64,000 nt of DNA from an uncultured virus (IMG/VR IMGVR_UViG_3300037258_000725) (taxonomy: Duplodnaviria; Heunggongvirae; Uroviricota; Caudoviricetes), in the IMG/VR virus record IMGVR_UViG_3300037258_000725, one strand, 5' to 3'. Below are positions 18,059 through 51,816 of the stretch, in pieces. A program made the translations under genes and the position numbers. Under the pieces are notes generated by a model. That model searched no databases. It saw nothing but the letters and a program-made list of their open reading frames with translations, and was not told the origin of the DNA. Position 1 is the stretch's first letter; each line of letters opens with the position of its first letter.

Positions 18059-18060
18059 AC

Positions 18061-18127
18061 GCCCGCAGAGAGGTCTTGTCTCTGACGCCGCTTGGCTGTT
18101 AAGCCCGCGGAGAGGCTGGTCTCCGAC
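18061..18127 (+). CRISPR. Mini-array directly downstream of cas12m: 2 repeats, 16-nt spacer
   Basis: Starts 2 nt after the stop: GCCCG-CAGAGA-GGTCTTG-TCTCTG-AC, GCCGCTTGGCTGTTAA, GCCCG-CGGAGA-GGCTGG-TCTCCG-AC. Confidence 0.85.
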
Positions 18128-20249: not shown

Positions 20250-20324
20250 CTCGGAGAGCTCCTCTCCGCGAGCATTGCTGGGGCGTTTCAGGTGGTAGTC
20301 GGAGATCAATGCCTCTCCGCGAGC
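20250..20324 (-). CRISPR. Mini-array: 2 repeats, 24-nt spacer
   Basis: Units 20250-20273 and 20298-20324 with CGGAGA/TCTCCG stem and GCTCG leader. Confidence 0.75.
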
Positions 20325-20346
20325 GCTGTTCCCAGCCTTCCTGAGC

Positions 20347-38595: not shown

Positions 38596-38649
38596 GCCAG
38601 AATGCTAGATGCCAGCCAGCCCTGGGCTGACTAGAACACGCCCAGCAGG

Positions 38650-38726
38650 GCCCGCAGAGAGGTTTGCCTGAATCTCTGACATCAGGACCGACCGAGGAAG
38701 CCTCGCGGAGAAGGGGATTCTCCGAC
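38650..38726 (+). CRISPR. Mini-array: 2 repeats, 20-nt spacer
   Basis: GCCCG-CAGAGA-12 nt-TCTCTG-AC, ATCAGGACCGACCGAGGAAG, CCTCG-CGGAGA-AGGGGAT-TCTCCG-AC. Confidence 0.8.
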
Positions 38727-38738
38727 AGTTTAGCCGGA

Positions 38739-38779
38739 ATTGCAGAAGCCCCTGACACCTGTTCAGGGGCTTCTGCAAT
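38739..38779. terminator. 17-bp hairpin
   Basis: ATTGCAGAAGCCCCTGA-7 nt-TCAGGGGCTTCTGCAAT. Confidence 0.6.
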
Positions 38780-38797
38780 GGGCCGCTCACAATTTCG

Positions 38798-38871
38798 TAG
38801 CGGAGGCAGGATTTGAACCTGCGACCTCTGGGTTATGAGCCCAGCGGGCTACCGAACTGCCCCACTCCGCG
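38798..38871 (-). tRNA. tRNA-fMet(CAT), initiator
   Basis: Cloverleaf; unpaired C1, GGG/CCC anticodon stem. Confidence 0.9.
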
Positions 38872-38875
38872 GCTT

Positions 38876-39115
38876 TCAGCATACCAGGCGGCGGGCCATG
38901 GCAGGGCTACTCAGCGGATTTGACTGCTGACCGGCTGTGATCCCGCTGGGCGGGGCGAAGCAGGGCGGCTGGATGTTGCTGGCCAGGGACAGCCACAGCA
39001 CCAGGGCCATGGCCGCCACGGCAGCGAACGCGAACAGGAGCCGGGCCGCAGCGGGCAGCCTGCCAGGACGCCGGGCAGGGATCTGGGCCGTGTAGGCAGG
39101 GTCTGGGATTCTCAT
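38876..39115 (-). CDS. Small membrane protein
   Basis: One TM; ATGA overlap. Confidence 0.45.
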   Translation of the reverse strand: MRIPDPAYTAQIPARRPGRLPAAARLLFAFAAVAAMALVLWLSLASNIQPPCFAPPSGITAGQQSNPLSSPAMARRLVC

Positions 39116-39966
39116 GGGGCAGGCCTCGGGTGCGGGACTGGGTGGCTGGTGATGAGCGGGACTGGCTCTGGCTGGTGCACATGCACACTGAGCACCCTCC
39201 AGCCCGTTACTATCACGCCTGCCAGTATGGCGGTGGCGGTACTGATGCTCAGCATGGCTCGCCGGGCAGGTGGCGGCAGCTTGTGCAGGCCGATGGCGGT
39301 CAGGACCACGGCGGCGGCCACCACCCCCTCCACCGGGTACAGATACAGCACCTTGCCCTGACTGGCGTCCACGGCAGGGATGGCCAGCAGGACCGAGACC
39401 GCATACAGCACCCAGGACAGGGTTGGCTCATCACCTTCCCAGTAGGTCTTGTGCGCGGTCAGCCAGGCTGCGGTCAGGTCCACGCTCACGGCCAGGATGA
39501 TGGTCCAGGTGCTGCCATTGGGCACCAGCAGGAGGGCCACCAGTGCCACGGCAACCCCGGCCAGGGTGAGCAGGAGGGCCCAGTTGACCCCGGCCGTGGC
39601 CCAGCAGGCCACCCGCTGGTACCCATGGCGGGACCGGGGCCGCTTGTGGCGGACATCGAAACCGCCCGTGCCATGCCTGATGGACAGGATGGCGATGGTG
39701 GTGCAGCCAATGGCCTCCCCCACGTACACAGTGATGGAGGCCCCGGCGTGGTGGCGGTACTCAGCCAGCGCGAGCTCCACGTACAGCACCGAGAAGATGA
39801 ACCAGGATGCCCGCTCAGGCCGGGCCTTGCCCTGGACCACGCTGCCGACGTAAGGCACGAAGGACAGCAGATTGACCAGGCCAGAGGCACCCCCCCAGGC
39901 GATGGCTGTGGTGAGCAGTGGTGCCAGGTAGACCAGTTGGCTAACTGGGCCCCATTTACCACCCAT
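39112..39966 (-). CDS. Multi-pass membrane protein
   Basis: About 7-8 TM segments; 'PY...V..G.ARP..ASW.I' and 'T..KTY...EP..SW' repeats. Confidence 0.7.
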   Translation of the reverse strand: MGGKWGPVSQLVYLAPLLTTAIAWGGASGLVNLLSFVPYVGSVVQGKARPERASWFIFSVLYVELALAEYRHHAGASITVYVGEAIGCTTIAILSIRHGTGGFDVRHKRPRSRHGYQRVACWATAGVNWALLLTLAGVAVALVALLLVPNGSTWTIILAVSVDLTAAWLTAHKTYWEGDEPTLSWVLYAVSVLLAIPAVDASQGKVLYLYPVEGVVAAAVVLTAIGLHKLPPPARRAMLSISTATAILAGVIVTGWRVLSVHVHQPEPVPLITSHPVPHPRPAP

Positions 39967-39978
39967 GGGTCTCCGGAG

Positions 39979-40953
39979 TCAGGCTTTGACCTCGGCCCAG
40001 CGCTGCCAGTGCCCCCGGGTGGCCCCTTCCCACTCAGGCAGGGCCAGGCTGGCCAGGGCGTTGGTGTCCCCGTTGGGCACGGCTTGCTCGGGGAGGGTCA
40101 GGTACTTGGCAGCGAACCAGGCCCCTGCTGTGTAGTCGGCGGGGGCGATCTCCTCCACCAGGCCCACCAGGATGGCCTCATACGCCACCCCGCGGCGCTG
40201 GCCAATCGCTGCCACTGACCGGGCCAGGGCATGCCGCCGTGGGTCATCTCCAGGCTTCACCCTGCCGAACTGGGAGCGGCCAGGGCCGGAATGGCCAGTG
40301 CCCTCCATCATCAGGCAGGGCCTGATGGCACGCTCCTCAGCCATGGGGATGCCGATGGCGATGCCAGCCCACACCTGCGCAGCCCTGGCCGTGGCCGGGA
40401 CCTCCAGCTTGGCCTGGGCGCAATGCACGAAGGCCCCGGGCTTGACCGGGAAGTGCCCCACGGCTGGGTCACTGGGGCCCAGCAGGGTCCGGCCCGCCTG
40501 AACCAGCGGCTCGAGACTGAAGACGGGGGTATGGCCCATCAGGAACAGGGCCCTGGACTTGGCCGGGTCATCCAGGTCGGGGTGGCGGGCGAAGTCCAGG
40601 CCCCAGATCCGGGCATAGTCCTCAGTGCCGCAGAAGGAGGAGACCGGGGAGACATTGATGCCTCCAGTGCCAGCCTTCCGCTCCGCCTCATCGAATGCGG
40701 TGATGCCGTCGAGTTCCTCACCTGAGTTGCCTTTTACCGAAGCGGCCCCGGCCACGAAGGTGAGCACATGAGCTCCCATTGGCGCGGCGGCCCCGCCACA
40801 GTAGTCAGGCCAGGGTGAAATCATCGATCCGGCCTCGGCTACGCCCAGCCGGGCCTGGGAGGCCAGGGGCGGAATCAGGGTGCTGTCGGGGTCAAGGGTG
40901 AGGGTGAATGGGTCAGCGGTGCGGGCCGTAGTCATGACGGCAGGATAGGTCAC
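39979..40953 (-). CDS. hdcA: Pyruvoyl-dependent histidine decarboxylase homolog (proenzyme)
   Basis: End-to-end similarity to recalled Lactobacillus HdcA: 'ISP', 'LDGI.AFD.AE', 'IN...SSF.G' cleavage site, 'PGAFV.CA', 'VWAGIAI', 'MMEG.G', 'YLTLP...P', 'LPEW'. Confidence 0.8.
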   Translation of the reverse strand: MTYPAVMTTARTADPFTLTLDPDSTLIPPLASQARLGVAEAGSMISPWPDYCGGAAAPMGAHVLTFVAGAASVKGNSGEELDGITAFDEAERKAGTGGINVSPVSSFCGTEDYARIWGLDFARHPDLDDPAKSRALFLMGHTPVFSLEPLVQAGRTLLGPSDPAVGHFPVKPGAFVHCAQAKLEVPATARAAQVWAGIAIGIPMAEERAIRPCLMMEGTGHSGPGRSQFGRVKPGDDPRRHALARSVAAIGQRRGVAYEAILVGLVEEIAPADYTAGAWFAAKYLTLPEQAVPNGDTNALASLALPEWEGATRGHWQRWAEVKA

Positions 40954-41079
40954 TATGGTTCACACTGCCACAACCATGCCGCAACTGGCATTCATGGCCT
41001 CAGGGCATGACACAGGGCAACTTGCTTGCGGCCAGGGCGGCGCGACTTTCAGCCGGTGAGGCCGGTAGCATCTCCTTGC

Positions 41080-41307
41080 ATGACGATCAGGCAGCCCCAG
41101 GCCCCGGCCTTCAGGCCATGGGACCGGGTTCAACTCAAGACCACTGATGAGGTTCAGGGAACCGTCACCCAGACCGAGCCGGACGGCAGGTTCAGTGTGC
41201 GTTTCGACGGCTCCAGGGACCCCTCAGGCCGCCGCAAGCCAGGCGGGCTCTACCACTACCCCTGGCACTGCGCTGAGGGCTTCACGATCACCCACGGCTC
41301 CAGGTAG
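41080..41307 (+). CDS. Small SH3-like hypothetical protein
   Basis: 'F.PWDRV....GTV......VRFD'. Confidence 0.4.
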   Translation: MTIRQPQAPAFRPWDRVQLKTTDEVQGTVTQTEPDGRFSVRFDGSRDPSGRRKPGGLYHYPWHCAEGFTITHGSR

Positions 41308-41790
41308 CTACTCCTGGCGGGGCCGGCGGTAGCCCCTGATCTCCCACCGTCGCCGGGGGCTGAATGTCCTGGACTCATAGCGGGCCTGGGTCTTGACCGC
41401 ATCAGCGATGGCGGCCCGGTGCTGTTCCCCGTGGCCCGGGTAGTCCGGGCAGCCGGTGAGGCTGGCCAGCTTGTGGGCCATCACCTTGCCGCAGCCGCGG
41501 CACCTGACCTCGTGGTAACAGGCCCAGCGGGCCCCTTCCCAGCGCTTGAGCTCACGGTGGAAGTCGGCCACCCACTTGCACTGCCACGAGCCATCCCGGC
41601 GTTCGGCTACGCCCTCATGGGGGCCATGGAGCTTCTTGCAGAAGGCCTTCCGGTCATGCTTCCCGCGGCCATGCCTGACTGGCCCTAGCTCAGCCTCAAC
41701 GGCAGCCCGGTCCAGATCTGACCGGGCTGGCTGGGAGTCCCCCCAGTCCCACCGTGATGCCCTGCCATGCCGCACATGCTGGCCAGGCAC
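41308..41790 (-). CDS. Cys/His-rich hypothetical protein
   Basis: Several C/H motifs. Confidence 0.45.
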   Translation of the reverse strand: MPGQHVRHGRASRWDWGDSQPARSDLDRAAVEAELGPVRHGRGKHDRKAFCKKLHGPHEGVAERRDGSWQCKWVADFHRELKRWEGARWACYHEVRCRGCGKVMAHKLASLTGCPDYPGHGEQHRAAIADAVKTQARYESRTFSPRRRWEIRGYRRPRQE

Positions 41791-41843
41791 AAGTCCCCCC
41801 TTGAGTCACTGAATGAGCTCATCCAGATCTTAATGAGCCAGGG

Positions 41844-42185
41844 TTATGGCCGCTCGCTGAACCGGCGTGTTGCCCTGATGTTGGCCCTGTCCTGGGCGGC
41901 TTCTGCCCTGATCCGGGGCTGCCCATACCTGGCTGCCCCAGCCCGTACCACCCGGCCATTCCCGCAGCCGCACATGCGGAACATCCAGTTGAAAAAGCGG
42001 TTATAGATGCGGCCTGTGCCGTTGCAGGGCCCATGGTTGTGCCGAGGGTGGGTGACACACAGGATGCGGTAGCCCACACCAGCCATGAAGGCCCAGCAGA
42101 ACTCGCCCAGGATGCCCCAGCGGGACCAGATGATGACCGTGATGATCAGGCCCATGATGCTGGCCGCCAGTCTCCCCATGGCCAT
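41844..42185 (-). CDS. Membrane protein with C-terminal Zn-finger-like motif
   Basis: 2 TM segments then 'CNGTG...C.CGNGR..R.GA'. Confidence 0.55.
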   Translation of the reverse strand: MAMGRLAASIMGLIITVIIWSRWGILGEFCWAFMAGVGYRILCVTHPRHNHGPCNGTGRIYNRFFNWMFRMCGCGNGRVVRAGAARYGQPRIRAEAAQDRANIRATRRFSERP

Positions 42186-42409
42186 GACGATACGCCGGAC
42201 TGCACAAGCGTGAATACCTCTGCTGGCCTGACCCGATTCGAACGGGCGATCTTGCGCTTAGGAGGCGCCTGCTCTGTCCTGGCTGAGCTACAGGCCATCG
42301 GAATGGCAACTGGAGGCCCCTGCTCTGACCGGGGGGCCTCCAGTGCCTGGGGGACCAACCGGAGTTAACGGACTCTGCTGGTCACCTCGACATGAAGTGT
42401 TGCACAATC

Positions 42410-42485
42410 TGGAGGCCGCGGCGGGAATTGAACCCGCGCACACTTGCTTTGCAGGCAAGCACCTTAGCCATTCGGTCACGCGGCC
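42410..42485 (-). tRNA. tRNA-Cys(GCA)
   Basis: Cloverleaf, encoded CCA. Confidence 0.9.
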
Positions 42486-42554
42486 AGGCAGGGCAGGCTG
42501 ACAGCCGCGCGTCCGCGGTCCAGTAGCGCTGTACGGACTCCCACCGTAATGCCC

Positions 42555-42631
42555 TGGTGCCCTCGGTCGGATTCGAACCGACGACCCCCTGCTCCGGAGG
42601 CAGGTGCGCTATCCAACTGCGCTACGAGGAC
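42555..42631 (-). tRNA. tRNA-Arg(CCG)
   Basis: Cloverleaf, encoded CCA. Confidence 0.9.
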
Positions 42632-42855
42632 AGGTCTTGCTGGCCAGGCCCAAGGGCCTGGTTGATCTTTGACCAGGTGCCGATGATGTCCCTGGCCACT
42701 CCCGGGGGGAGCTCAGTGACCTCTCCCACCTCGACGGGCACCCCGTGCTGGTCTTCAACCTGCCGCATGGTGCCAGCCAGGACCTCCTGGGCCACGGCTG
42801 AGTTGGGGGCCTCCACGAAACCCCACATCTGCGCTCGGTAGAACGGCATGGTCAC
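42622..42855 (-). CDS. Hypothetical protein between tRNAs
   Basis: Fills the inter-tRNA gap. Confidence 0.4.
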   Translation of the reverse strand: MTMPFYRAQMWGFVEAPNSAVAQEVLAGTMRQVEDQHGVPVEVGEVTELPPGVARDIIGTWSKINQALGPGQQDLSS

Positions 42856-42864
42856 TCATCGTAG

Positions 42865-42950
42865 TGGTGCCAGGTGCTGGGTTCGAACCAGCGTAGGACA
42901 AGCCGGCGGTTTTACAGACCGCTCCCTTTGACCAACTCGGGCAACCTGGC
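42865..42950 (-). tRNA. tRNA-Tyr(GTA)
   Basis: Cloverleaf with long variable arm, CCA. Confidence 0.9.
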
Positions 42951-42958
42951 TTGAGGGG

Positions 42959-43033
42959 TGCCGGGGGGCGGATTCGATACCGCCATCTCTATCCCGTTAT
43001 ATAGGGTTGCCTCTGCTGTTGGGCTACCCCGGC
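42959..43033 (-). tRNA. Atypical/pseudo tRNA, anticodon ambiguous (ATA or TAT)
   Basis: Intact GCCGGGG/CCCCGGC acceptor and T stem; irregular anticodon arm (loop TATATAAC) and 8-nt T loop. Confidence 0.5.
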
Positions 43034-43037
43034 ACAG

Positions 43038-43112
43038 GGTGAGTGATGGGACTCGAACCCACGGCATCCAGGACCACAACCTGGCGCTCTAACCAACTGA
43101 GCTACACCCACC
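43038..43112 (-). tRNA. tRNA-His(GTG)
   Basis: Cloverleaf with G-1:C73. Confidence 0.9.
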
Positions 43113-43132
43113 ATGATCTACACTCCCAGTCC

Positions 43133-43381
43133 ATGACCGGAGCGCAGAAGCTATGCACCTGCGGGCACCCTGAGAGCCCGCACATCCTGGTCTGCTACGA
43201 CAAGGGCAACCCGTTCATGGGCGGGCTGATGTTCTGCCAGGAGCTCGCCACCTGCCGGTGTGTCCACACCTGGGGACCTGAGGCTGGCGGAGTCCCGCTC
43301 AACCCTGATGCGGACATTATGCCCCCACCTTCAGTCATTGAGGAGTGGCGTCAGGCCCTGCTGGAGGAGCGGCAGGGCTGA
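43133..43381 (+). CDS. Small Cys-rich hypothetical protein
   Basis: 'CTCGHP...H...C....C.C'. Confidence 0.45.
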   Translation: MTGAQKLCTCGHPESPHILVCYDKGNPFMGGLMFCQELATCRCVHTWGPEAGGVPLNPDADIMPPPSVIEEWRQALLEERQG

Positions 43382-43545
43382 GCTACACGAAGTACCACCA
43401 GTGCTCTCCCTGGAGCCTGATACCAGTGATCAGGATGCCCGCAGGGCCAGATCCACCAGACTCAACACCACTCTCAGAGTTGCCAGCGCTGAAGGCATTG
43501 CCGCGCTTGTCCATGGAGCTCTCCTGCCTGCTGGACTGCTGAACG

Positions 43546-43617
43546 TGGGCGATGATGGGATCGAACCATCGGCTTCTTCGGTGTGAACGAAGCACTCTGC
43601 CGCTGAGTTAATCGCCC
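43546..43617 (-). tRNA. tRNA-Val(CAC)
   Basis: Cloverleaf. Confidence 0.9.
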
Positions 43618-43785
43618 TGGGGTGGCGGAGCGCCGTGCCCGTGCCCTGGGTACCTTCAGGGCCGGTGCATCGCATTGGGCCGCTTACCGCCCCACCCAGC
43701 GTCCCGGGTGGCCGGGTTGATTCCCGGTACGGTCGCACCTACTTATCAGTATCCAGCTTTCCCAGAACCCGTGCGGGTCAAGCCT

Positions 43786-43956
43786 TCACCTGTCCTCCTG
43801 CTGGTCGCGGATCTCACGCCGCCCCGACCGGCGCTCCTTCTTGTGATACCGGCGCTTGGCTTTCCGCAGTACACCAGCCTGCCAGTGGAGCACATGCCGC
43901 CAGCCGGTAAAGACATCCTGCTCAGGAAAGCCCTGCAAGATCCGCTTGGTTGCCAC
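43786..43956 (-). CDS. 56-aa basic protein (below the ORF-track cutoff)
   Basis: MATKRILQGFPEQDVFTGWRHVLHW...KAKRRYHKKERR read from the sequence. Confidence 0.5.
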   Translation of the reverse strand: MATKRILQGFPEQDVFTGWRHVLHWQAGVLRKAKRRYHKKERRSGRREIRDQQEDR

Positions 43957-43957
43957 G

Positions 43958-44030
43958 CGCGCCCAGAGGGACTCGAACCCCCAGCCCTCTGATCCGTAAT
44001 CAGAAGCTCTATCCGTTGAGCTATGGGCGC
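43958..44030 (-). tRNA. tRNA-Arg(ACG)
   Basis: Cloverleaf. Confidence 0.9.
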
Positions 44031-44038
44031 TTGGTTAA

Positions 44039-44596
44039 TCAGGTTCCGTCGTCTTCGCCGTCGTCATCCTCCTCATGGCCCACCTGGTTGATGAGCTCCA
44101 TGACCTCGATGTAAAGCTGGTCTGGGAATGGCACGAACTGAATCCTGCTCAGGGCCTGGTCCTGCCCGGCTGACTCAAGAATCCAGGTAGCATAGCGCAG
44201 CCTCTTGGCCACCCAGGACTGGTCCACCCCCATGTCCGTCACCCTGTTAATGGGCATCAGCCTGACCCGTGCGCCAAAGACCCCACCCACCTCGATGAAC
44301 TTGAACGGGGTGATGGTGAAGTAGGTCACCATCCAGTTCAGGATCTTCCAGGTGGCCCTCAGGGCCAGCAGGACCCAGCCAATCCAGATCAGGTCCACCA
44401 GCACTGTGGCCCCGTTGGCCACTGCGGCAGCAGTCAGCACGCAGGCCACGATGAAGCCCAGCACGGCCGACCCGACTGGGCCCACCAGGGAGATCGGGTG
44501 GTACCTGACCACCGCAATGGGCGGGATCTCCGCATGGGTCAGCCATCTGACCACCTTGGCTGGCACCAGGTTGTCTTTGGGGATGGTGGCTGGCAT
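44039..44596 (-). CDS. Bacterial PH-domain (bPH_2) membrane protein
   Basis: 2 TM segments, 'W....F.IT...G......MP..RVTD...Q.......Y....ESAGQDQAL'. Confidence 0.8.
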   Translation of the reverse strand: MPATIPKDNLVPAKVVRWLTHAEIPPIAVVRYHPISLVGPVGSAVLGFIVACVLTAAAVANGATVLVDLIWIGWVLLALRATWKILNWMVTYFTITPFKFIEVGGVFGARVRLMPINRVTDMGVDQSWVAKRLRYATWILESAGQDQALSRIQFVPFPDQLYIEVMELINQVGHEEDDDGEDDGT

Positions 44597-44614
44597 GGCA
44601 TAACCATAACGCTG

Positions 44615-44687
44615 TGGGCGATGAGAGACTTGAACTCCCGGCCTCCTCCGTGTCAGGAAGGCGCTCTCCCAACTGAGCTAACCGCCC
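44615..44687 (-). tRNA. tRNA-Val(GAC)
   Basis: Cloverleaf. Confidence 0.9.
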
Positions 44688-44731
44688 AGGTGGGGGGAGC
44701 ACTGCCGGTGTTTCAGGCTGCCTACCCCCCG

Positions 44732-44806
44732 CGGTCCTGACGGGATTTGAACCCGCGGCCTGCACCTTGACAGGGTGCCGAGCACTCCAGGCTGCTCTAC
44801 AGGACC
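44732..44806 (-). tRNA. tRNA-Asp(GTC)
   Basis: Cloverleaf. Confidence 0.9.
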
Positions 44807-44830
44807 ATGTAATGGTGTTACGTTCAGTTC

Positions 44831-45130
44831 ATGCTAGTTGCCGAGACGGTCTTCGAGTGGCTGATGCTCGGCATCGGTGCCGCTGCCCTGGCCTTCCTGG
44901 GCGTCTGGGCGGTCTTTAACGCGGCCCTGGCTGTCGTGGAGCACCACAGGGTCCGCACCGGCTACAGGTGGATGCGCCTGCCTGACGGCAGCTTCGGCCC
45001 GGTCCGCAAGCCCCCGCCAGCCCGGCGCAGTGTCCAGGTGGTGGTGTTCGGCGTCAGCCGGGTCACGCCGCCACCAAGTGCACCGTCATCGTCAGCATCG
45101 ACGTGGACATCATACTGGGACCGAGAATAG
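44831..45130 (+). CDS. Small membrane protein
   Basis: N-terminal TM segment. Confidence 0.4.
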   Translation: MLVAETVFEWLMLGIGAAALAFLGVWAVFNAALAVVEHHRVRTGYRWMRLPDGSFGPVRKPPPARRSVQVVVFGVSRVTPPPSAPSSSASTWTSYWDRE

Positions 45131-45428
45131 GGGCTCCCAGGGTGGCGCCATATCACAATGGCGTTAAAACGTGCTACCTTGTGCCTCATGTTTGCCGTGC
45201 TGAACGCCGTTCTCGTCGTCATTGCCGGCGGGGCCTACACCTACCTGGCCAGGTTCATGACCCAGCACCCTCACCCCGCTGAGGGCCCACGGCCAGCCCC
45301 GGAGCGTGAGCTCAGCCTGGCCCGGCTGTGAGTGGCTTCTTTGTGATCCTCGGCGTGGCCGTGGTTCTGGCTGGCCTGGCCCTGCTTGGGGCCATCCTGG
45401 ACTGGCTGAGCAGGCCAGCCAGGTAGAG

Positions 45429-45501
45429 CTCCCGCATTTGGACTCGAACCAAAAACCTGCCGGTTAACAGCCGGACGCTCTGCCTATTGAGCTATGCGGG
45501 A
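45429..45501 (-). tRNA. tRNA-Asn(GTT)
   Basis: Cloverleaf. Confidence 0.9.
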
Positions 45502-45502
45502 T

Positions 45503-45578
45503 TGGTTCCCCCAACGAGATTCGAACTCGCGCCGACGCCTTGAAAGGGCGTTGTCCTGGGCCACTAGACGATGGGGGA
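45503..45578 (-). tRNA. tRNA-Glu(TTC)
   Basis: Cloverleaf, CCA. Confidence 0.9.
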
Positions 45579-45579
45579 A

Positions 45580-45655
45580 TGGTAGCCGGTACGAGATTTG
45601 AACTCGCGCCGCCGCCTTGAGAGGGCGGTGTCCTGGGCCACTAGACGAACCGGCC
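45580..45655 (-). tRNA. tRNA-Glu(CTC)
   Basis: Cloverleaf, CCA. Confidence 0.9.
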
Positions 45656-45667
45656 ATTGGTGGTGCG

Positions 45668-45741
45668 TGCGCCTGGAGGGATTCGAACCCCCGGCCGACT
45701 GCTTAGAAGGCAGTAGCTCTATCCGACTGAGCTACAGGCGC
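45668..45741 (-). tRNA. tRNA-Arg(TCT)
   Basis: Cloverleaf. Confidence 0.9.
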
Positions 45742-45750
45742 TTGACAGAG

Positions 45751-45822
45751 TGGGCCGCCAGGGGCTCGAACCCTGAACCCGAAGATTAAAAGTCTCCTGC
45801 TCTGCCATTGAGCTAACGGCCC
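45751..45822 (-). tRNA. tRNA-Lys(TTT)
   Basis: Cloverleaf. Confidence 0.9.
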
Positions 45823-45874
45823 GTGGTGGTTTATGGGCCGCGCGTTTACTGGTCATTGGTTCTCCCCGAGCGTA

Positions 45875-45959
45875 GTCGGAGATGTCTTCTCCGCGAGTGT
45901 GCGCCTGCCAGATGACTGCTTCTGGCCATGAGCGTTTCCGGAGATACCTCTCCATGGGT
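45875..45959 (-). CRISPR. One intact (45875-45898) and one degenerate (45937-45959) repeat within the tRNA operon
   Basis: ACTCG-CGGAGA-AGACA-TCTCCG-AC; the degenerate copy ACCCA-TGGAGA-GGTA-TCTCCG-GA keeps ACC/GGT complementarity. Confidence 0.6.
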
Positions 45960-46060
45960 GCAGTGTGGTAGTCTCGCCGTTGCGCACCTGGCGTGGGCCA
46001 CGAGCCCGACCGGCATAGCCAACGGGGTGGAGTGATACTCCCTGCCAGGTGTGTTTTGCG

Positions 46061-46134
46061 TAGCGGTGACGGGACTTGAACCTGTGACCTGCGGATTATG
46101 AGTCCGCTGCTCTATCCGACTGAGCTACACCGCC
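46061..46134 (-). tRNA. tRNA-Met(CAT), elongator (Ile2 not excluded)
   Basis: Cloverleaf. Confidence 0.85.
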
Positions 46135-46135
46135 G

Positions 46136-46209
46136 TGGGCCTAGATGGACTTGAACCATCGCCCTCTGCCTTATCAGGACAGCGCTCTAACCTTCTGAGC
46201 TACAGGCCC
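46136..46209 (-). tRNA. tRNA-Ile(GAT)
   Basis: Cloverleaf. Confidence 0.9.
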
Positions 46210-46220
46210 GGGGGGCCCAG

Positions 46221-46445
46221 CTAATGCCGGGCCCAGTTCTGGTAGGCACGCCAGCTTCGCGCGGCGGCCTGGTCTTCCTCGATCATCTGGTGCTGTTCCT
46301 GCACCCGCTTGAGGTGCTTGCCCTGCCGCTTGGCTGCGGCCAGGATCTTAGTGTTCCGCTTGGTGGATGCCACGTTATAGGTGGCGTACATCATGACACC
46401 CCAGAGGCGTCGTTCTTCAGCTACCCATTCCTGATCACGACTCAT
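46221..46445 (-). CDS. Small hypothetical protein
   Basis: Fills the inter-tRNA gap. Confidence 0.4.
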   Translation of the reverse strand: MSRDQEWVAEERRLWGVMMYATYNVASTKRNTKILAAAKRQGKHLKRVQEQHQMIEEDQAAARSWRAYQNWARH

Positions 46446-46497
46446 TTCCAGCCCAGCTAACGTGTGGGCGGCCCGGTGAGATGGATATTGCCGTGCG

Positions 46498-46583
46498 CGG
46501 CGGGGGTGAGATTCGAACTCACGGGGCCCATAAGACCCAACTGCTTTCAAGGCAGTCGCACTAGGCCACTATGCGACCCCGCC
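46498..46583 (-). tRNA. tRNA-Ser(TGA)
   Basis: Cloverleaf with long variable arm. Confidence 0.9.
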
Positions 46584-46625
46584 ATTACCGAAACCTACCA
46601 GGTCGGAGACTGATTCTCCGCGAAC
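46584..46625 (-). CRISPR. Single repeat plus 18-nt spacer sandwiched between two tRNA-Ser genes
   Basis: GTTCG-CGGAGA-ATCAG-TCTCCG-AC then CTGGTAGGTTTCGGTAAT, then the 5' G of tRNA-Ser(TGA). Confidence 0.65.
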
Positions 46626-46626
46626 G

Positions 46627-46715
46627 CGGTGAGGGAGGGATTTGAACCCCCGAGCCCCTTGGGGGGCTAGCTGCTTTCGAAACAGCCGCAATCATCCAGG
46701 CTCTGCCACCCCACC
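46627..46715 (-). tRNA. tRNA-Ser(CGA)
   Basis: Cloverleaf with long variable arm. Confidence 0.9.
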
Positions 46716-46733
46716 ATGGGTGCTTCATAAAAG

Positions 46734-46820
46734 CGGAGGGTGAGAGATTCGAACTCCCGAGGACTTGCGCCCAACCGGCATTCCAGGCCGGCGCCATAAA
46801 CCAGACTAGGCGAACCCTCC
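46734..46820 (-). tRNA. tRNA-Ser(GGA)
   Basis: Cloverleaf with long variable arm. Confidence 0.9.
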
Positions 46821-46993
46821 ATGTTCAGAACTGTTCAGAACTGTTAAAGATCGTTCCTCCCATTGCCGGGCCATCCAGTGTGGTGCTTACATGGGTGGTG
46901 GTAGCTGGCATCTGTGGGCCCCTTCAGGTGCGGCTGTGGTGAGGAACGGGAAGAAGCAGGGTGCTGTTGCCGCGGCACCCTGCCTCACCAATG

Positions 46994-47085
46994 CGGAGCC
47001 TGAGAGATTCGAACTCTCGACGGTGGTATAACCCCCGAACCTGATTAGCAGTCAGGCGCCATAGACCGGACTAGGCGAAGGCTCC
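46994..47085 (-). tRNA. tRNA-Ser(GCT)
   Basis: Cloverleaf with long variable arm. Confidence 0.9.
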
Positions 47086-47141
47086 ATGCAGGTGGTACGA
47101 TCCGGACTTGGCGGCACCAACCCAGACAGGAGCATCCACCC

Positions 47142-47330
47142 ATGACCGGCACTCTCAGTCTCATCCGTCTGGCTAGGCCCCGGACCAAGCTCCTCGTCCT
47201 GCTGTTCCTGGCGCTCGCGGCCCTGTTCCTGGCTGTGAGCATCGTGCACCCCGAGTTCCTGGGGATGGCCCAGACAGCCCAGGACCACGCGGTCCTGGCG
47301 GCAGGCAGCAACGTCCGATACCACTCGTGA
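47142..47330 (+). CDS. Small membrane/secreted peptide
   Basis: AGGAG RBS; one hydrophobic helix. Confidence 0.45.
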   Translation: MTGTLSLIRLARPRTKLLVLLFLALAALFLAVSIVHPEFLGMAQTAQDHAVLAAGSNVRYHS

Positions 47331-47415
47331 CCCGCTGGTACGAGTGGGTCATAGTCAACCTGGCGGCAACGATTGCCCTGATCATCGGGGTGATCGGTGC
47401 CGCTGGTGTCTTAGG

Positions 47416-47500
47416 TGCCCCAGGAGAGATTTGAACTCTCACACCCTTGCGGGCACACGGGCCTGAACCGTGCGCGTCTGCCTGGTTTCGCCACCGGGGC
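47416..47500 (-). tRNA. tRNA-Leu(CAG)
   Basis: Cloverleaf with long variable arm. Confidence 0.9.
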
Positions 47501-47543
47501 TAGGCGGGGCAGGTGGGCTGTTTCCAGCCCAGACCCGCCCCAG

Positions 47544-47616
47544 AGCGGACGACCGGCCTCGAACCGGCGATCTCCTGCATGGCAAGCAGGTGCGTTACCA
47601 ACTACGCCACGTCCGC
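47544..47616 (-). tRNA. tRNA-Gly(GCC)
   Basis: Cloverleaf. Confidence 0.9.
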
Positions 47617-47756
47617 ATGGAGCTCTCCCACTCCCCCAGTTTCCCCCCATGTCCTCACAGGTTGGGGGAGTGGGAGCTCAAGCCACCGCTCTAGGCCAGG
47701 GCTTATTATCGGCCTGGTCCAGCAGGAACGCGGTAGCCACTGCCCTGCTGTTTCTG

Positions 47757-47829
47757 AGCCGCCACACGGGATCGAACCGTGGACCTTCTCCTTACCATGG
47801 AGATACTCTGCCGACTGAGCTATGGCGGC
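47757..47829 (-). tRNA. tRNA-Thr(GGT)
   Basis: Cloverleaf. Confidence 0.9.
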
Positions 47830-47862
47830 AAGGGTCAGAGGAATGCCCCTCTGTGGGCCTAG

Positions 47863-47936
47863 CTGGCCGCCCTGGGTTCGAACCAGGACAATTCCAGGGC
47901 CAAAACCTGGTGGGCTGCCAATTACCCTAGCGGCCA
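47863..47936 (-). tRNA. tRNA-Gln(TTG)
   Basis: Cloverleaf. Confidence 0.9.
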
Positions 47937-48259
47937 TCCTCCCGTGCCTTGCGGCACGGGTCACACAATGTCTTGATCCATCCGCCCGGGTGGCCAGACT
48001 TGCACACTCCAGGCTTGCCGCAGGTCTCACACACCTCCGCAGACAGGGCCTCGTAGCGGCCCAGAACCGCCCAGAGCTCCTCAGTGCCACGCACCAGGTA
48101 CACGACCAGCCTGCCGAACTTCTCCTTGACCTGGGCGGTCTCATAGCCGGGGTCGATGGTCATGAGCTCGATGTGGAGGCCGCGGAGCAGGCCCAGCCAG
48201 CCAGGGCCAATGTCATGGGCGTGGTCAGTGACTGGGCCACCCTGAGCGAATGGCATCAC
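47927..48259 (-). CDS. Conserved phage hypothetical protein
   Basis: 'GPGW..L...QVKEKFG.L..Y...E..S...CETCGKPG...GWIKTLC'. Confidence 0.7.
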   Translation of the reverse strand: MMPFAQGGPVTDHAHDIGPGWLGLLRGLHIELMTIDPGYETAQVKEKFGRLVVYLVRGTEELWAVLGRYEALSAEVCETCGKPGVCKSGHPGGWIKTLCDPCRKAREDGR

Positions 48260-48272
48260 TTCCCCTTCCCAC

Positions 48273-48350
48273 TGGAGCCGCCTACCCGGGTCGAACGGGT
48301 CACCTGCCGCTTACAAGGCGGCTGCTCTGCCTGCCATGAGCTAAGGCGGC
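48273..48350 (-). tRNA. tRNA-Thr(TGT)
   Basis: Cloverleaf, CCA. Confidence 0.9.
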
Positions 48351-48537
48351 TAGATCCTGCGCTCCTGCGTGACTGAGGCTGGACAGTGCTGGGTGTGCCA
48401 GGAACACAGCCCGCCGCGGCCGACTCGTCGGCGCAGGCAGCCCAGCCGCATCCAGCCATGAGACCTGTGGCGGCATCGCCCCTGGTGCCTGATCACGTTC
48501 CGCTCCCCCATGTTCACGTTCCGCATTCATCCTAGCG

Positions 48538-48621
48538 TGCGCCCACCCGGATTTGAACCGGGACACCCTTGCGGGCACGGCCCCCTCAAGACCGCGCGTC
48601 TGCCTGTTCCGCCATGGGCGC
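48538..48621 (-). tRNA. tRNA-Leu(GAG)
   Basis: Cloverleaf with long variable arm. Confidence 0.9.
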
Positions 48622-48629
48622 GCGTTGAG

Positions 48630-48702
48630 AGCCCGGGAGCGGCCTCGAACCGCTGGCCTCTCGTTTACGAGACGAGTGCTCTGCCGACTGAGCTACCCGG
48701 GC
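48630..48702 (-). tRNA. tRNA-Thr(CGT)
   Basis: Cloverleaf. Confidence 0.9.
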
Positions 48703-48806
48703 ATGGGCGGCAATTGCAGGGATTCCTCCCAGCGTCACCTGGGCATCGGTTTATGGCCGCTGAGGTACCTGACACAGCCCTCTACTAAAACCCTGCAATT
48801 GCCTAG

Positions 48807-48878
48807 CTGAGGTACCAGGACTCGAACCTGGATCGAAGGGACCAGAACCCATCGGGCTGCCAATTACCCCATACCCCA
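48807..48878 (-). tRNA. tRNA-Gln(CTG)
   Basis: Cloverleaf. Confidence 0.88.
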
Positions 48879-48879
48879 T

Positions 48880-48958
48880 TGGTGCGGACGGTGAGATTCG
48901 AACTCACACTGTGCAGTTTTTGAGACTGCCGTCTCCTGCCAGGTTGGACTACGCCCGC
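48880..48958 (-). tRNA. tRNA-Leu(CAA), short variable arm
   Basis: Cloverleaf, CCA. Confidence 0.85.
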
Positions 48959-49177
48959 AGAACCGGAAAGAGAACGCAAGCCTCTTTCCGGACTGGCACA
49001 CGCCGTTGACCGGGGGTGCTCCCCCGATGCCGGTCACCCGCGCTTACAGCACTCTCACGCGGGCTCACGCCTCCTGTGCCGGGAGGTGGCAGGGCGCTCC
49101 TAATGCCAGGCAACGTGCGCACATTGCAAGGCCGGGACACCGTTTAAAACCGATACCGCAGCATCGGTTCCCTAGCG

Positions 49178-49249
49178 TACGCCGTGAGAATTACGATATC
49201 TCAACCCCCCGGTTAAGAGCCGGGTGCTCTGCCTTTGAGCTAACGGCGC
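49178..49249 (-). tRNA. tRNA-Lys(CTT), non-canonical T loop
   Basis: Cloverleaf; T arm GAGAT-ATCGTAA-TTCTC. Confidence 0.8.
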
Positions 49250-49338
49250 TTGGTTCACTCACTGTTGAACGGTCGGAGACAACTCTCCGCGAGTGGCTGC
49301 CTGACTGAATGCCTCGTCGGAGACAACTCTCCGCGATA
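49250..49338 (-). CRISPR. Mini-array: 2 repeats with 21- and 22-nt spacers between tRNA-Gly and tRNA-Lys
   Basis: GTCGGAGACAACTCTCCGCGA at 49272 and 49316. Confidence 0.75.
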
Positions 49339-49339
49339 G

Positions 49340-49410
49340 AGCGGACGAAGGGAATCGAACCCTCGTGACCAGCTTGGAAGGCTGGAGCCCTGCCACTGGG
49401 CCACGTCCGC
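49340..49410 (-). tRNA. tRNA-Gly(TCC)
   Basis: Cloverleaf. Confidence 0.9.
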
Positions 49411-49514
49411 ATGATCAATAGTGCGCGTGTCGTTGCGAGCCAATTTCAGCCGCCTACCGCTCGGACAGGTCACCTGCTTTGGGCTGGCCGTCTCTGGCGT
49501 AGCAGGGCCCACAG

Positions 49515-49583
49515 TGACACGCCTGGATTCGAACCAGGGGCCTCCCCGGTTAGGGGCGAGTCAGCCACCGACTCTCCGTGCCG
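49515..49583 (-). tRNA. Degenerate tRNA-like element
   Basis: Perfect T arm CCTGG-TTCGAAT-CCAGG, GGCACG/CGTGTC acceptor, shrunken anticodon arm. Confidence 0.45.
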
Positions 49584-49642
49584 CACACAGGCTGCGCACT
49601 TCCTGTGCTCCAGAATGCAGGCCGATCATTCCTGCATTCCCG

Positions 49643-49716
49643 TGGTGCCGGGTGGGATCGAACCACCGTCCTCATGCTTTTCAGGCAAGCGCTCATACCG
49701 ACTGAGCTACAGCACC
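49643..49716 (-). tRNA. tRNA-Phe(GAA)
   Basis: Cloverleaf. Confidence 0.9.
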
Positions 49717-49918
49717 ATGTCGGGGGTTCGCTTATCCCAGGACAGCCCCCAAATTCGGGCCCTGCATGCGTGCAGTCAGTGGGCCCACTGACTGCTTGAG
49801 TTCACCGCCCGGCTTGAGGTGCCTACCGCTTGCCCTATGAGCAGGCCAAGGAGTTGCACCCAGGCCACGGACCTCAATACCAGCAACGGATCACTGGGCA
49901 GCACACCAGCTACCCAAG

Positions 49919-49992
49919 TCGGGATGACTGGATTCGAACCAGCGGCCTCCTGCTCCCGAAGCAGGCGCCCTGCCAAGCTGGGCCACATCCCG
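49919..49992 (-). tRNA. tRNA-Pro(CGG)
   Basis: Cloverleaf. Confidence 0.9.
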
Positions 49993-50079
49993 AAAGGTGC
50001 CAGGGCTTCCTCTCAACTGCCAGTTGACGGTGACAGGCATCGCCTGGCCGTCCCACTACCCTGGCCGGGTAGTCTTCTG

Positions 50080-50153
50080 TCGGGATATTCGGATTCGAAC
50101 CGAAGACCTCCTGCTCCCAAAGCAGGCGCCCTGCCAAGCTGGGCCATATCCCG
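50080..50153 (-). tRNA. tRNA-Pro(TGG)
   Basis: Cloverleaf. Confidence 0.9.
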
Positions 50154-50155
50154 TC

Positions 50156-50596
50156 CATGCTGGGAAGGGTGGACCGGGAGTTAACGTGATCCCGGCTTTA
50201 CTCCAAAGGGCGAACCTCACCCTTTCCAGCAATGAGCATTGCTACTCTGCCATCTCATACAGGCAGTTCCTGTCGGCCGAATCCTCGCTGCCCAAGCCAG
50301 CGCCCATTCGGGCGTCGAGACCCAAGACGCGGCAGCAATGCCGCTTTAGTGCCTGCTCCCATCAGATGCCAGGACGCCATTTACCAGGCGCTGGGCCTGG
50401 CATTGCGCTCAACCTGTCCCGGACGGCATTCCCTTAACCCCGTCCTGGCCGTGGTGCCATTCGCAGGCAAAGTGCTGAGTGGGCTTGATATCCAGGGCTA
50501 TCACACACCCTGGCTTTCGCAACATGTATCCGGCCACCCCACGCCGCCCTTTCCTAGGATGACGACGCACAATGCCGGGGCCTCTCGGCGCCCACC
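50156..50596 (-). ncRNA. Candidate large structured ncRNA
   Basis: About 440 nt between tRNAs, no convincing ORF, many adjacent hairpins. Confidence 0.4.
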
Positions 50597-50598
50597 CG

Positions 50599-50672
50599 TG
50601 GACCGCTCCGGGCTCGAACCGGAAACCTTCTCCTTGCAAAGGAGTTGCTCTGCCAATTGGAGCTAGCAGCCC
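50599..50672 (-). tRNA. tRNA-Ala(TGC)
   Basis: Cloverleaf, G3-U70. Confidence 0.9.
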
Positions 50673-50854
50673 TTAGAGCCGGGGTGGCGCCGCCAGTGGG
50701 ATTCCCGGCGACAATTTCAGCGGGTCGGCCCCATGAAGCCTGCCCGCCACCTGTGCTCCATGGAGCACCCCCGGACGTAAATGCGGGCCTCTGCCAATTG
50801 AGGTACCAGCCCAGGAGTGGACTGGACGAGACTCGAACTCGCAACTTCCCGCTG
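50673..50854 (-). ncRNA. Circularly permuted tRNA-like element with structured extension
   Basis: 3' half (50818-50854) precedes a complementary 5' half (starting at 50812) in transcript order. Confidence 0.5.
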
Positions 50855-50927
50855 TGGAGCTACACGGAATTGAACCGTGGACCCCCTCCATGCCATGGAG
50901 GTGCTCTACCAACTGAGCTACAGCCCC
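50855..50927 (-). tRNA. tRNA-Ala(GGC)
   Basis: Cloverleaf, G3-U70. Confidence 0.9.
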
Positions 50928-51067
50928 GAGCTACCAGGCCTGAGCTCAGGGACCCCTCCCTGAAACTCAGCCTGGCCAGCCCTCCTGCCGCCCACCGCGG
51001 GGGGGTCCCGCTACCCGGTGTTACCCGGGGCGGGCCCGCAGCCGGCAGGACGCTTTAATTTGGACAC

Positions 51068-51120
51068 AAAAAAAGCCGTGCAGTCCGGGCCGAATGGGAA
51101 ATTGGCCAGACTGCACGGCT
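51068..51120 (-). terminator. Rho-independent terminator
   Basis: AGCCGTGCAGTC...GACTGCACGGCT followed by a T-run on the minus strand. Confidence 0.7.
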
Positions 51121-51253
51121 GTCTCATGTTGAAAGCAGGGGTGTGCCAAGGTGCTGGGCATCCCTGCCTTGAGCTAACCGCGGAGTCTAACCGCAGGCCC
51201 CACTGGCCTCCTGGATGACAGCTATTTTTGGGTGGTCTGCTGCCGTGACCAAG

Positions 51254-51326
51254 TGGAGCTAGCGCGACTTGAACGCGCGGCCCCCTCGTTGCGAACGAGG
51301 TGCTCTACCTGCTGAGCTATAGCCCC
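51254..51326 (-). tRNA. tRNA-Ala(CGC)
   Basis: Cloverleaf, G3-U70. Confidence 0.9.
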
Positions 51327-51500
51327 ATGTCGGGGACTCCTGCCTGCACCCAGCGGGCGCAGGCAGGAGTCCCCTGCTAAATGGTGTTCACGCTGTGCAG
51401 TTGTGCCCGGGCGACCCATGCTCGTGGTGAGCTCGTTGGCCTTCTGCTACCCGGGGGCCGGTCACGGGACCATCCACGCGCTTAGCCCGGCACCCTTTCG

Positions 51501-51573
51501 CAGGGACGGAGGGGTTCGAACCCGCAACCTCCGGTTTTGGAGACCGGCGCTCTGCCAGTTGAGCTACATCCCT
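51501..51573 (-). tRNA. tRNA-Trp(CCA)
   Basis: Cloverleaf. Confidence 0.9.
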
Positions 51574-51786: not shown

Positions 51787-51816
51787 ATGGTAAACCGGGC
51801 CTGGTGAGTTTGGCAA
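51787..51816 (-). promoter_or_regulatory. Candidate promoter for the tRNA region
   Basis: TTGCCA-18 nt-TACCAT with an AT-rich upstream tract. Confidence 0.4.

Follow-up and report, generated by a model that had tools for sequence, protein, structure and literature searches.

Candidate Cas12m guide units in the gaps of a tRNA gene array of an uncultured virus

[quoted passage not shown] The virus is represented by a 64,000-nucleotide (nt) sequence, IMG/VR record IMGVR_UViG_3300037258_000725, hereafter the window, that is, the whole stretch of DNA analysed here. The locus raises the question of whether these segments are guides embedded in a tRNA operon and, if so, which effector would use them and how they would be released. 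Here we show that the window contains 26 related hairpin units at 11 sites, along with a gene for the effector Cas12m. The explanation that we favour, and regard as probable, is that the element combines its own Cas12m with these 26 shrunken units, the guides in the tRNA gaps being freed by tRNA enzymes.

Units in the tRNA gaps

ARAGORN identified 39 tRNA genes on the minus strand and one elsewhere in the window; 36 of these 40 were confirmed by Rfam at the gathering score. The sites with units are designated A to K, and the segment 3' of each hairpin handle is called its guide or spacer. Bit scores marked R2 are from a covariance model built from 25 window units.

38797..51573, minus strand: array of 39 tRNA genes, holding units G, H, I and J (ARAGORN)
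46626..46715, minus strand: tRNA-Ser(CGA), upstream of unit H (ARAGORN; 46627-46715 in Rfam)
46602..46625, minus strand: unit H handle, with prefix GUUCG, stem CGGAGA/UCUCCG, loop AUCAG, and AC (R2, 28.9 bits)
46584..46601, minus strand: unit H guide, 18 nt, its end abutting the 5' nucleotide of tRNA-Ser(UGA) (sequence, ARAGORN, Rfam)
46497..46583, minus strand: tRNA-Ser(UGA), downstream of unit H (ARAGORN, Rfam)
49339..49410, minus strand: tRNA-Gly(UCC), upstream of J (ARAGORN, Rfam)
49316..49338, minus strand: unit J1 handle, with prefix UAUCG and loop GUUG (R2, 22.1 bits)
49295..49315, minus strand: unit J1 guide, 21 nt (sequence, stem pattern)
49272..49294, minus strand: unit J2 handle, with prefix ACUCG and the same stem-loop as J1 (R2, 25.3 bits)
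49250..49271, minus strand: unit J2 guide, 22 nt, its end abutting the 5' nucleotide of tRNA-Lys(CUU) (sequence, ARAGORN, Rfam)
49177..49249, minus strand: tRNA-Lys(CUU), downstream of J (ARAGORN, Rfam)
51787..51816, minus strand: promoter-like site TTGCCA-18-TACCAT, upstream of the first tRNA (consensus match only; one found, 2.0 expected)

The first-pass annotation of this DNA had described a repeat with an 18-nt spacer between tRNA-Ser(CGA) and tRNA-Ser(UGA) (46584-46625), and a repeat-21 nt-repeat-22 nt series between tRNA-Gly(UCC) and tRNA-Lys(CUU) (49250-49338); both descriptions agree with the sequence and with the tRNA calls. It had also placed the units on the tRNA strand, with the last spacer ending at the 5' nucleotide of the next tRNA, and this holds, ARAGORN and Rfam giving the same downstream 5' ends (46583 and 49249). 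In Rfam, the upstream tRNA 3' ends fall one base earlier (46627 and 49340), so that the prefix before the stem measures 5-6 nt. H, J1 and J2 fill their gaps exactly, all five units of the tRNA array (G, H, I, J1 and J2) lie on the tRNA strand, and at both H and J the guide units are directly bounded by same-strand tRNAs. Because these gaps leave no room for a separate promoter, H and J can be transcribed only together with the tRNAs; scans of the window for promoter and terminator consensus sequences gave matches at shuffle level. The hairpin of unit H is the centroid fold, and the tRNA-bounded guides of 18 and 22 nt fit the heteroduplex of 17-18 base pairs (bp) reported for Cas12m.

Relationship to Cas12m repeats

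The units share a layout consisting of a prefix of about 5 nt, a 6-bp stem, a loop of 4-12 nt and AC, followed by a guide of about 16-24 nt. According to passages of the published structural work (PMC10442227, PMC11013384), the handle of the MmCas12m2 CRISPR RNA (crRNA) comprises a G(-23)-A(-2) pair, six Watson-Crick pairs, a loop and A(-2)C(-1), and forms a 17-bp heteroduplex, with 18 bp read by GoCas12m; the loop in the Mm structure contacts the scaffold, and Cas12m cleaves pre-crRNA upstream of the scaffold. The window motif G-CGGAGA-loop-UCUCCG-AC has exactly the same frame, with the guide 3' of the handle. The repeats at all eight foreign cas12m loci compared (one Mycobacterium plasmid, three genomes and four metagenome contigs) end in ...GCCYG-CG-NNNN-loop-NNNN-CG-AC.

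A covariance model built from 10 foreign Cas12m repeats and zero window sequences (R1), run with filters off, places window units at all of ranks 1-12 (27.5-13.5 bits), including stem variants at 7091-7126 and 7190-7224 that had not been searched for previously. The window-derived model, R2, yields 26 units at 21.5-37.6 bits, with the next match at 12.9 bits, and in the reverse search matches the canonical Cas12m repeats in L051 (25 bits). Because the foreign-only model ranks the window units first and the reverse search works as well, we are confident that the units are Cas12m crRNA handles.

Counts of the exact motif are far above expectation (5 versus 0.12 and 3 versus 0.11). A general stem pattern (C-N-G-N-G-R, a loop of 4-12 nt, a perfect complement, and then A plus C, T or G) had 28 matches, whereas 100 dinucleotide shuffles averaged 2.33 and never exceeded 6, and 25 of the 28 carry a YCG/CCCG prefix, which the pattern did not demand. 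The stem occurs in seven versions, all compensated (CGGAGA, CGGAGG, CAGAGA, CAGAGG, CGGGGA, CGGUGA and CUGAGG); since pairing was a condition of the pattern, the number of versions is informative and the pairing itself is not. The stem of unit K2, CAGGGG/UCUCUG, pairs solely via two G-U pairs, which points to RNA on that strand. An Rfam scan of the window reported tRNAs only.

These results bear on the possibility that the motif is unrelated to CRISPR and represents a terminator, a protein operator or a phage repeat resembling repetitive extragenic palindromic (REP) elements. Such an origin would account for the variable loop, which is unusual for CRISPR repeats, for the scattered copies, and for the likeness of the stem GGAG to a ribosome-binding site. 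However, a model that contains foreign repeats only finds the units, the reverse search succeeds, and the units flank cas12m, while the 6-bp stem, the G...AC frame and the GCCCG prefix are those of bona fide Cas12m repeats. This possibility is largely refuted, and we consider it exceedingly improbable.

The Cas12m effector

The effector is encoded in the same window.

16079..18058, plus strand: cas12m gene, product P0001 of 659 amino acids (aa), with an HDD-type RuvC and an HCCC zinc finger (PDB and PADLOC matches)

In PDB, P0001 matches GoCas12m (8pm4, expectation value (E) 1.9e-53), MmCas12m2 (8hhl, E 4.2e-36) and 23vw (E 4.2e-24), and its PADLOC match is Cas12u1 (E 5.2e-91). The residues H381, D554 and D644 are invariant across 11 homologues (alignment A1); H381 is aligned with Mm His317 in the printed alignment, and D554 and D644 correspond to Asp485 and Asp579 by motif position. 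In the zinc finger, H614, C617 and C634 are invariant in the same alignment, and C637 was taken from the sequence. By hand mapping on the printed alignment, the crRNA scaffold contacts of the Mm protein, His269/Arg270, fall on H333/R334 of P0001, and its contacts with the TT protospacer-adjacent motif (PAM), Tyr141/Trp152/Asn156/Gln197, fall on Y154/W164/N168/Q209. Judged by its sequence, the open reading frame (ORF) at 16079-18058 is an intact Cas12m with all key residues kept. Effectors with this non-canonical RuvC triad (His-Asp-Asp, clade 2) bind DNA and do not cut it, and P0001 is expected to act by PAM-dependent DNA binding without cleavage.

IMG/VR yielded no relatives of this Cas12m, and in genome or metagenome contigs no relative exceeded 31% identity; the Cas12m proteins most similar to it are P0002 (50% identity) and P0003 (40%). 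A PADLOC search of the 78 window ORFs found no Cas1, Cas2 or Cas4, and a neighbouring 402-aa ORF had no relatives in IMG/VR.

Distribution of the units

The 26 units (25 found by the stem pattern and one more by R2, against about 2 expected by chance) occupy 11 sites spread over at least 45 kb, so that H and J, with three units, are a small part of the system. The units outside the two gaps described above, except for unit I (see below), are as follows.

5237..5308, plus strand: mini-array K, two units (stem pattern; R2, second unit 21.5 bits)
7047..7337, minus strand: array A, seven units with stems CGGAGA/CGGAGG/CGGGGA/CAGAGG; AC-to-AC distances of 44-50 nt, one of 29 (R1, stem pattern, R2)
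12929..13156, minus strand: array B, five units with stems CGGAGG/CGGAGA/CGGUGA/CUGAGG/CAGAGA, the last three ending in AU, not AC (stem pattern, R2)
16020..16048, plus strand: unit C, a single handle ending 30 nt ahead of the cas12m start codon (R1, R2)
18058..18127, plus strand: mini-array D, two units directly 3' of the cas12m stop codon (R1, stem pattern, R2)
20250..20327, minus strand: mini-array E, two units (stem pattern, R2)
38647..38776, plus strand: mini-array F, two units (38647-38726) on the strand opposite to the neighbouring genes, then a 13-bp hairpin (38742-38776) (stem pattern, R2)
45823..45898, minus strand: unit G, a handle (45875-45898) and then 52 nt before tRNA-Lys(UUU) (stem pattern; R2, 30.9 bits)

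The 15 internal spacers measure 22, 6, 17, 20, 22, 20, 20, 19, 33, 30, 16, 24, 20, 21 and 17 nt; their median is 20 nt, and 12 of the 15 are within 16-24 nt (taken by hand from the coordinates). The unit period is 41-50 nt, compared with 72-76 nt in foreign Cas12m arrays, and the effector has beside it no regular series of nearly identical 36-nt repeats separated by spacers of about 36 nt. Given the short period, the differing stems and loops, and the 11 separate sites, the units are best described as shrunken, diverged and scattered mini-arrays, not as canonical 36+36 arrays.

The positions of the units bring in a further explanation, namely that the hairpins serve as RNA processing or stability punctuation in the tRNA and other operons, with or without pre-crRNA cleavage by Cas12m, and have no guiding role. 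By rough gene calls based on the GC content of third codon positions (GC3), 24 of the 26 units are intergenic and run in the same direction as the neighbouring genes, the two units of F looking like a separate small transcription unit; several units lie at operon ends beside terminator-like hairpins. Such placement would suit punctuation, as would a Cas12m cut upstream of the scaffold. Nevertheless, tRNAs need no extra signals, and most gaps in the tRNA array contain no unit. The conserved G...AC frame and prefix correspond to Cas12m recognition and not to a generic hairpin, and the regular 44-50 nt spacing in arrays A and B is a trait of arrays. We consider punctuation without guiding to be quite improbable.

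Some sequences next to the units deserve mention. Unit C resembles the standalone repeats upstream of cas12a, for which autoregulation has been proposed. About 60 nt upstream of unit G, at 45937-45955 on the minus strand, there is a degenerate handle-like hairpin, GGAGA-GGUA-UCUCC, that lacks the closing C-G pair and AC and may be a decayed unit. Five copies of ACGAACA lie in about 60 nt (12860-12925, minus strand) immediately downstream of array B and upstream of a ParA-like gene (11984-12748, minus strand), and these may be partition or operator iterons. A small ORF at approximately 13093-13316 (minus strand), ribbon-helix-helix-like by impression only, reads through the first unit of array B into the second.

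Unit I and occurrence of units elsewhere

A third gap in the tRNA array is filled by a unit of a different build.

47830..47861, minus strand: unit I, with prefix UAGGCCCA, stem CAGAGG/CCUCUG and AC, then 4 nt (CCUU); fills the gap between tRNA-Gln(UUG) and tRNA-Thr(GGU) (R1, 13.5 bits; R2, 31.8 bits)

The tRNA-Thr beside unit I is an ARAGORN call only and is absent from the Rfam list. A record from a second soil run (X2, 47756-47937) carries unit I with a compensatory pair of changes, G47841>A and C47848>T; in addition, the prefix G is regained through T47854>C, and G47834>A replaces AC by the AU also seen in array B. When contigs of two soil runs were placed on the window, most proved to be unrelated tRNA look-alikes, and this X2 record was the only informative one.

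The array also has structures of other kinds in its gaps. The gap between tRNA-Gly(GCC) and tRNA-Thr(GGU) contains a near-perfect inverted repeat (47620-47679; arms of about 19 bp, loop of about 23 nt), and the 42-nt gap between tRNA-Leu(CAG) and tRNA-Gly(GCC) (47501-47542) is filled by a different GC-rich hairpin; neither is a Cas12m unit. Far from the array, ARAGORN called a lone 82-nt tRNA-Gly(UCC) (11777-11858, plus strand) that is absent from the Rfam list at the gathering score.

Similar units were detected in two other sequences. L060, a 26-kb metagenome contig encoding a Cas12m with 29% identity, has diverged units both upstream and downstream of the gene and farther off (3666-3808, 5830-6069 and 8842-9151), some of them only about 10 nt apart; its tRNA-Val is about 800 nt from the nearest unit. 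Among 49 IMG/VR matches to the single motif, one held four units, and its 33-kb record, G402, accounts for 13 of 17 R2 matches, or 14 stem-pattern matches including one opposite-strand overlapping pair, at three sites:

L072, 13956-14306: units of G402
L072, 17565-17636: units of G402
L073, 4042-4236: units of G402

No tRNA and no Cas12m match were found in this 33-kb fragment (estimated to be 31% complete), and apart from the units it bears no relation to the window (a single 80-nt match in blastn; best tblastx match, 41.8 bits). Near other cas12m loci, two tRNAs were found in 17 loci, and neither of the two abuts a unit.

Targets and alternative explanations

Target searches covered, in IMG/VR, the guides of H, J1 and J2 (three of about 24 guides) and, in cultured phages, gap J and array A; the plasmid collection was left out. 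No protospacer was found in the searches made. The exact J2 18-mer had no match in IMG/VR. The J1 18-mer occurred in two related contigs, with no extension past 18 nt and the flank GGT, and the H 18-mer in three related contigs of about 49% GC with the flank TCT, not TTN. The rate for the single motif implies about 1-2 matches per 18-mer, and both sets of matches were therefore judged to be due to chance. The H matches lie within a short ORF belonging to another type of element; the product of this ORF may resemble DpnD/PcfM proteins.

In 401 sampled Actinomycetota genomes, the H guide had no match with up to one mismatch (0/401). Within the window, the 17-nt heads of the guides gave chance-level matches only at up to three mismatches; there were three exact seeds of at least 11 nt (12, 12 and 13 nt), all of them lacking a T-rich flank and likewise judged to be chance. 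The flank within the arrays is GAC, not TTN, so that self-binding is avoided, as in any array. In the cultured phages, BLAST searches with gap J and array A produced only matches at E 4-10 across spacer-repeat borders or in tail genes. No cross-targeting was detected among the window, G402-G406 and L060 at up to two mismatches; the mutual match of G403 and G404 consists of the same spacers directly after the same units, that is, shared arrays and not targets.

Several observations weigh against working guides in the tRNA gaps, beginning with this lack of protospacers. Up to E 10, H, J1, J2 and G, which are the least canonical units, go unmatched by the foreign-only model, and J1 (22.1 bits), J2 (25.3 bits) and the array unit at 7234 (25.5 bits) are the lowest three of the 25 training units of R2. 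The GCCCG prefix is absent from H, J1, J2 and G, whose loops are 4-5 nt long, as opposed to the scaffold-contacting loop of the Mm structure. In the minimum-energy fold of gap J, the two repeats pair together instead of forming two handles. At unit I, just 4 nt separate the handle from the following tRNA, yet a relative has kept the unit; at least one handle in a tRNA gap is therefore not an ordinary guide, and the G402 units in a fragment without cas12m show that units can exist without a nearby effector.

Some of these observations would be expected if the handles in the tRNA gaps were guide-less Cas12m ligands, either decoys, akin to RNA anti-CRISPRs (Racrs), against a Cas12m of the host or a rival, or titrators or positioners of the element's own Cas12m, with the 18-22 nt serving as a linker. 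Unit I, with its 4 nt and its compensatory change in the relative, fits this explanation, as do the G402 units and the failure of every searched guide to find a target. Viruses are known to carry solitary repeat units, termed Racrs (PMC11656645, PMC10651486), and single viral repeat units are described in a section of the former as acting as RNA anti-CRISPRs (PMC11656645). However, the window encodes a matching effector flanked by units, so that the mimicry of host repeats by a virus without a matching effector, a trait of Racrs, does not apply; the other Racr trait, a solitary repeat without a usable spacer, applies to unit I (4 nt) and not to H, J1 and J2 (18-22 nt). The spacers of H and J are within the 16-24 nt range of the arrays, and J combines two identical handles with two different spacers, which is array-like rather than decoy-like. 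We think it unlikely that the gap handles are ligands without guides.

Alternatively, tRNA genes could have been inserted into, or recombined with, an old and decaying CRISPR array, leaving non-working units in the gaps as a neutral leftover. The units are indeed diverged, adaptation genes are absent from the 78 ORFs, the units in the tRNA gaps are the least canonical ones, and no targets were found. Against decay, all 25 pattern-selected stems are perfectly paired over seven versions (in part a consequence of the search pattern), the unit I of the relative has kept its pairing through a double change and has its prefix G restored, and cas12m is intact; furthermore, the exact filling of the H and J gaps with guides of 18 and 22 nt would be a coincidence. 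A neutral leftover appears improbable to us.

Proposed maturation and function

The first-pass annotation had read the units as guides whose ends would be defined, and whose expression would be made high, by host tRNA processing. The handles of Cas12m type, the matching effector, the strand, and the lengths of 18 and 22 nt support the guide part of its interpretation; unit I, with only 4 nt, and the lack of any target tell against the simplest form of it. On the anatomy of the gaps, we lean, without great confidence, towards H and J being working guides matured by tRNA enzymes.

Taking as observed the effector, the handle architecture, the abutment on tRNAs, the strand and the compensatory stem changes, maturation could proceed as follows. 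The five units in the tRNA operon would be transcribed along with the tRNAs. At H and J, cleavage by RNase Z or an equivalent, releasing the 3' end of the tRNA upstream, would generate the crRNA's 5' end, and the RNase P cut at the 5' end of the next tRNA would set the 3' end of the guide. The products would be crRNAs of about 42-45 nt, for which neither a full repeat nor processing by Cas12m would be needed. Cas12m loaded with such a guide would bind DNA beside a TTN motif and block transcription or replication of the target, most likely a rival mobile element or the host.

More broadly, the phage tRNA operon may express and mature crRNAs of about 42 nt by means of host RNase Z and RNase P, and the 26 units, distributed over differently timed transcripts, may make up a multi-target set of programmable repressors, serving to take over the host or to silence rival elements, and not an adaptive immune array. 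We offer this wider proposal tentatively and rate it slightly below even.

Gene content of the element

The window has a GC content of 59-68% and includes phage-type genes for a GH25 endolysin, a holin and a tail-fibre-like Laminin_G_3 protein, along with genes for a DarB-like methylase-helicase, Lsr2, DUF2786 and ParA. No capsid or terminase genes were found within the 64-kb window. We read it as part of a high-GC, actinophage-like soil element, possibly a phage-plasmid; the cas12m product is listed on a 71,842-base contig. Several cargo genes are unusual:

32852-33331: NADAR domain protein
39979-40953: pyruvoyl-type histidine decarboxylase-like protein
53818-54357: SLOG (YAcAr) protein
60643-63956: DarB-like cytosine methylase and helicase

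Comparison with known systems and implications

The system can be regarded as a variant of type V-M CRISPR that would work like an engineered tRNA-guide RNA (gRNA) array, the second likeness being one of anatomy only. With type V-M Cas12m, as portrayed in parts of the literature (PMC10442227, PMC11013384), it shares the HDD triad, the zinc finger, the scaffold and PAM residues, the frame of the handle and the absence of adaptation genes. In canonical V-M loci, a single array has a period of 72-76 nt, with 36-nt repeats and spacers of about 36 nt, whereas here the repeats are about 24-30 nt long, the spacers are about 16-24 nt, loops and stems differ from unit to unit, and the units occupy 11 sites, some of which are embedded among tRNAs. 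Engineered polycistronic tRNA-gRNA arrays were reportedly described by Xie et al. in 2015. In these arrays, guides are directly flanked by tRNAs on one transcript, and cuts by RNase Z and RNase P set both ends, as they would here. The units of the window, in contrast, are natural and phage-borne, and each would give a crRNA of Cas12 type, in which the handle precedes the guide on its 5' side. Literature searches for a natural tRNA-crRNA arrangement returned no report and engineered tRNA-gRNA systems only, which is not proof that none exists.

Repeats outside the main array have precedents. Standalone repeats upstream of cas12a are presented as common and regulatory in a portion of one study (10.1101/2023.03.03.530964). 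A second source reports, in the part relevant here, that CRISPR-associated transposons (CASTs) use delocalized crRNAs, that viral mini-arrays use host Cas proteins, and that plasmids are enriched in V-M systems, which some prophages carry as well (PMC11656645). As far as the corresponding portions of these works go (10.1101/2023.03.03.530964, PMC11656645), crRNA-like RNAs, regulatory mini-arrays and the delocalized crRNAs of CASTs resemble the units in consisting of diverged repeats outside the main array, often just upstream of a cas gene (compare unit C), or of two-repeat mini-arrays. They are described there as mainly of type I and V-A and located in the cas locus, the spacers in part matching promoters of cas or cargo genes, whereas the 26 units are spread over at least 45 kb, have no self-match found, and are partly in tRNA gaps. 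Racrs and virus-borne mini-arrays (PMC10651486, PMC11656645) are likewise solitary repeat units or arrays of one or two spacers in viral genomes; they rely on or inhibit host Cas proteins, whereas the element encodes an effector of its own and spacers accompany most of its units.

In the section of a September 2026 preprint that concerns it (10.64898/2026.09.14.751636), the Cas12m of myxophage MV-1 is called the first phage Cas12m by its authors. As characterized there, it also belongs to a phage-borne V-M system with no adaptation genes and no identified targets; its effector is of the DED type and its single array, a canonical one, has eight spacers, compared with the HDD-type effector, scattered shrunken units and tRNA embedding found here. 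More distant parallels exist in other protein and RNA families. TldRs are nuclease-dead, TnpB-like repressors of prophages, in which a mobile element likewise employs a nuclease-dead RNA-guided DNA binder as a repressor, and the tRNA-linked microRNAs (tRNA-miRNAs) of murine gammaherpesvirus 68 (MHV68) are viral small RNAs freed by tRNA-processing enzymes. Neither pairs a CRISPR effector with tRNA-defined guides.

If the proposed explanation is correct, the tRNA-gRNA polycistron arose in nature ahead of engineers, and CRISPR guides can be matured wholly by housekeeping tRNA enzymes. A minimal Cas12m crRNA would then consist of a handle of about 24 nt, with loops of 4-12 nt tolerated, and an 18-nt guide, and would be useful for compact CRISPR interference (CRISPRi) and base editing. 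The gaps of phage tRNA arrays, the finding suggests, are worth screening for further hidden small RNAs. The element itself would add to the mobile elements that employ a cleavage-dead CRISPR effector for regulation, its guides being fixed and scattered.

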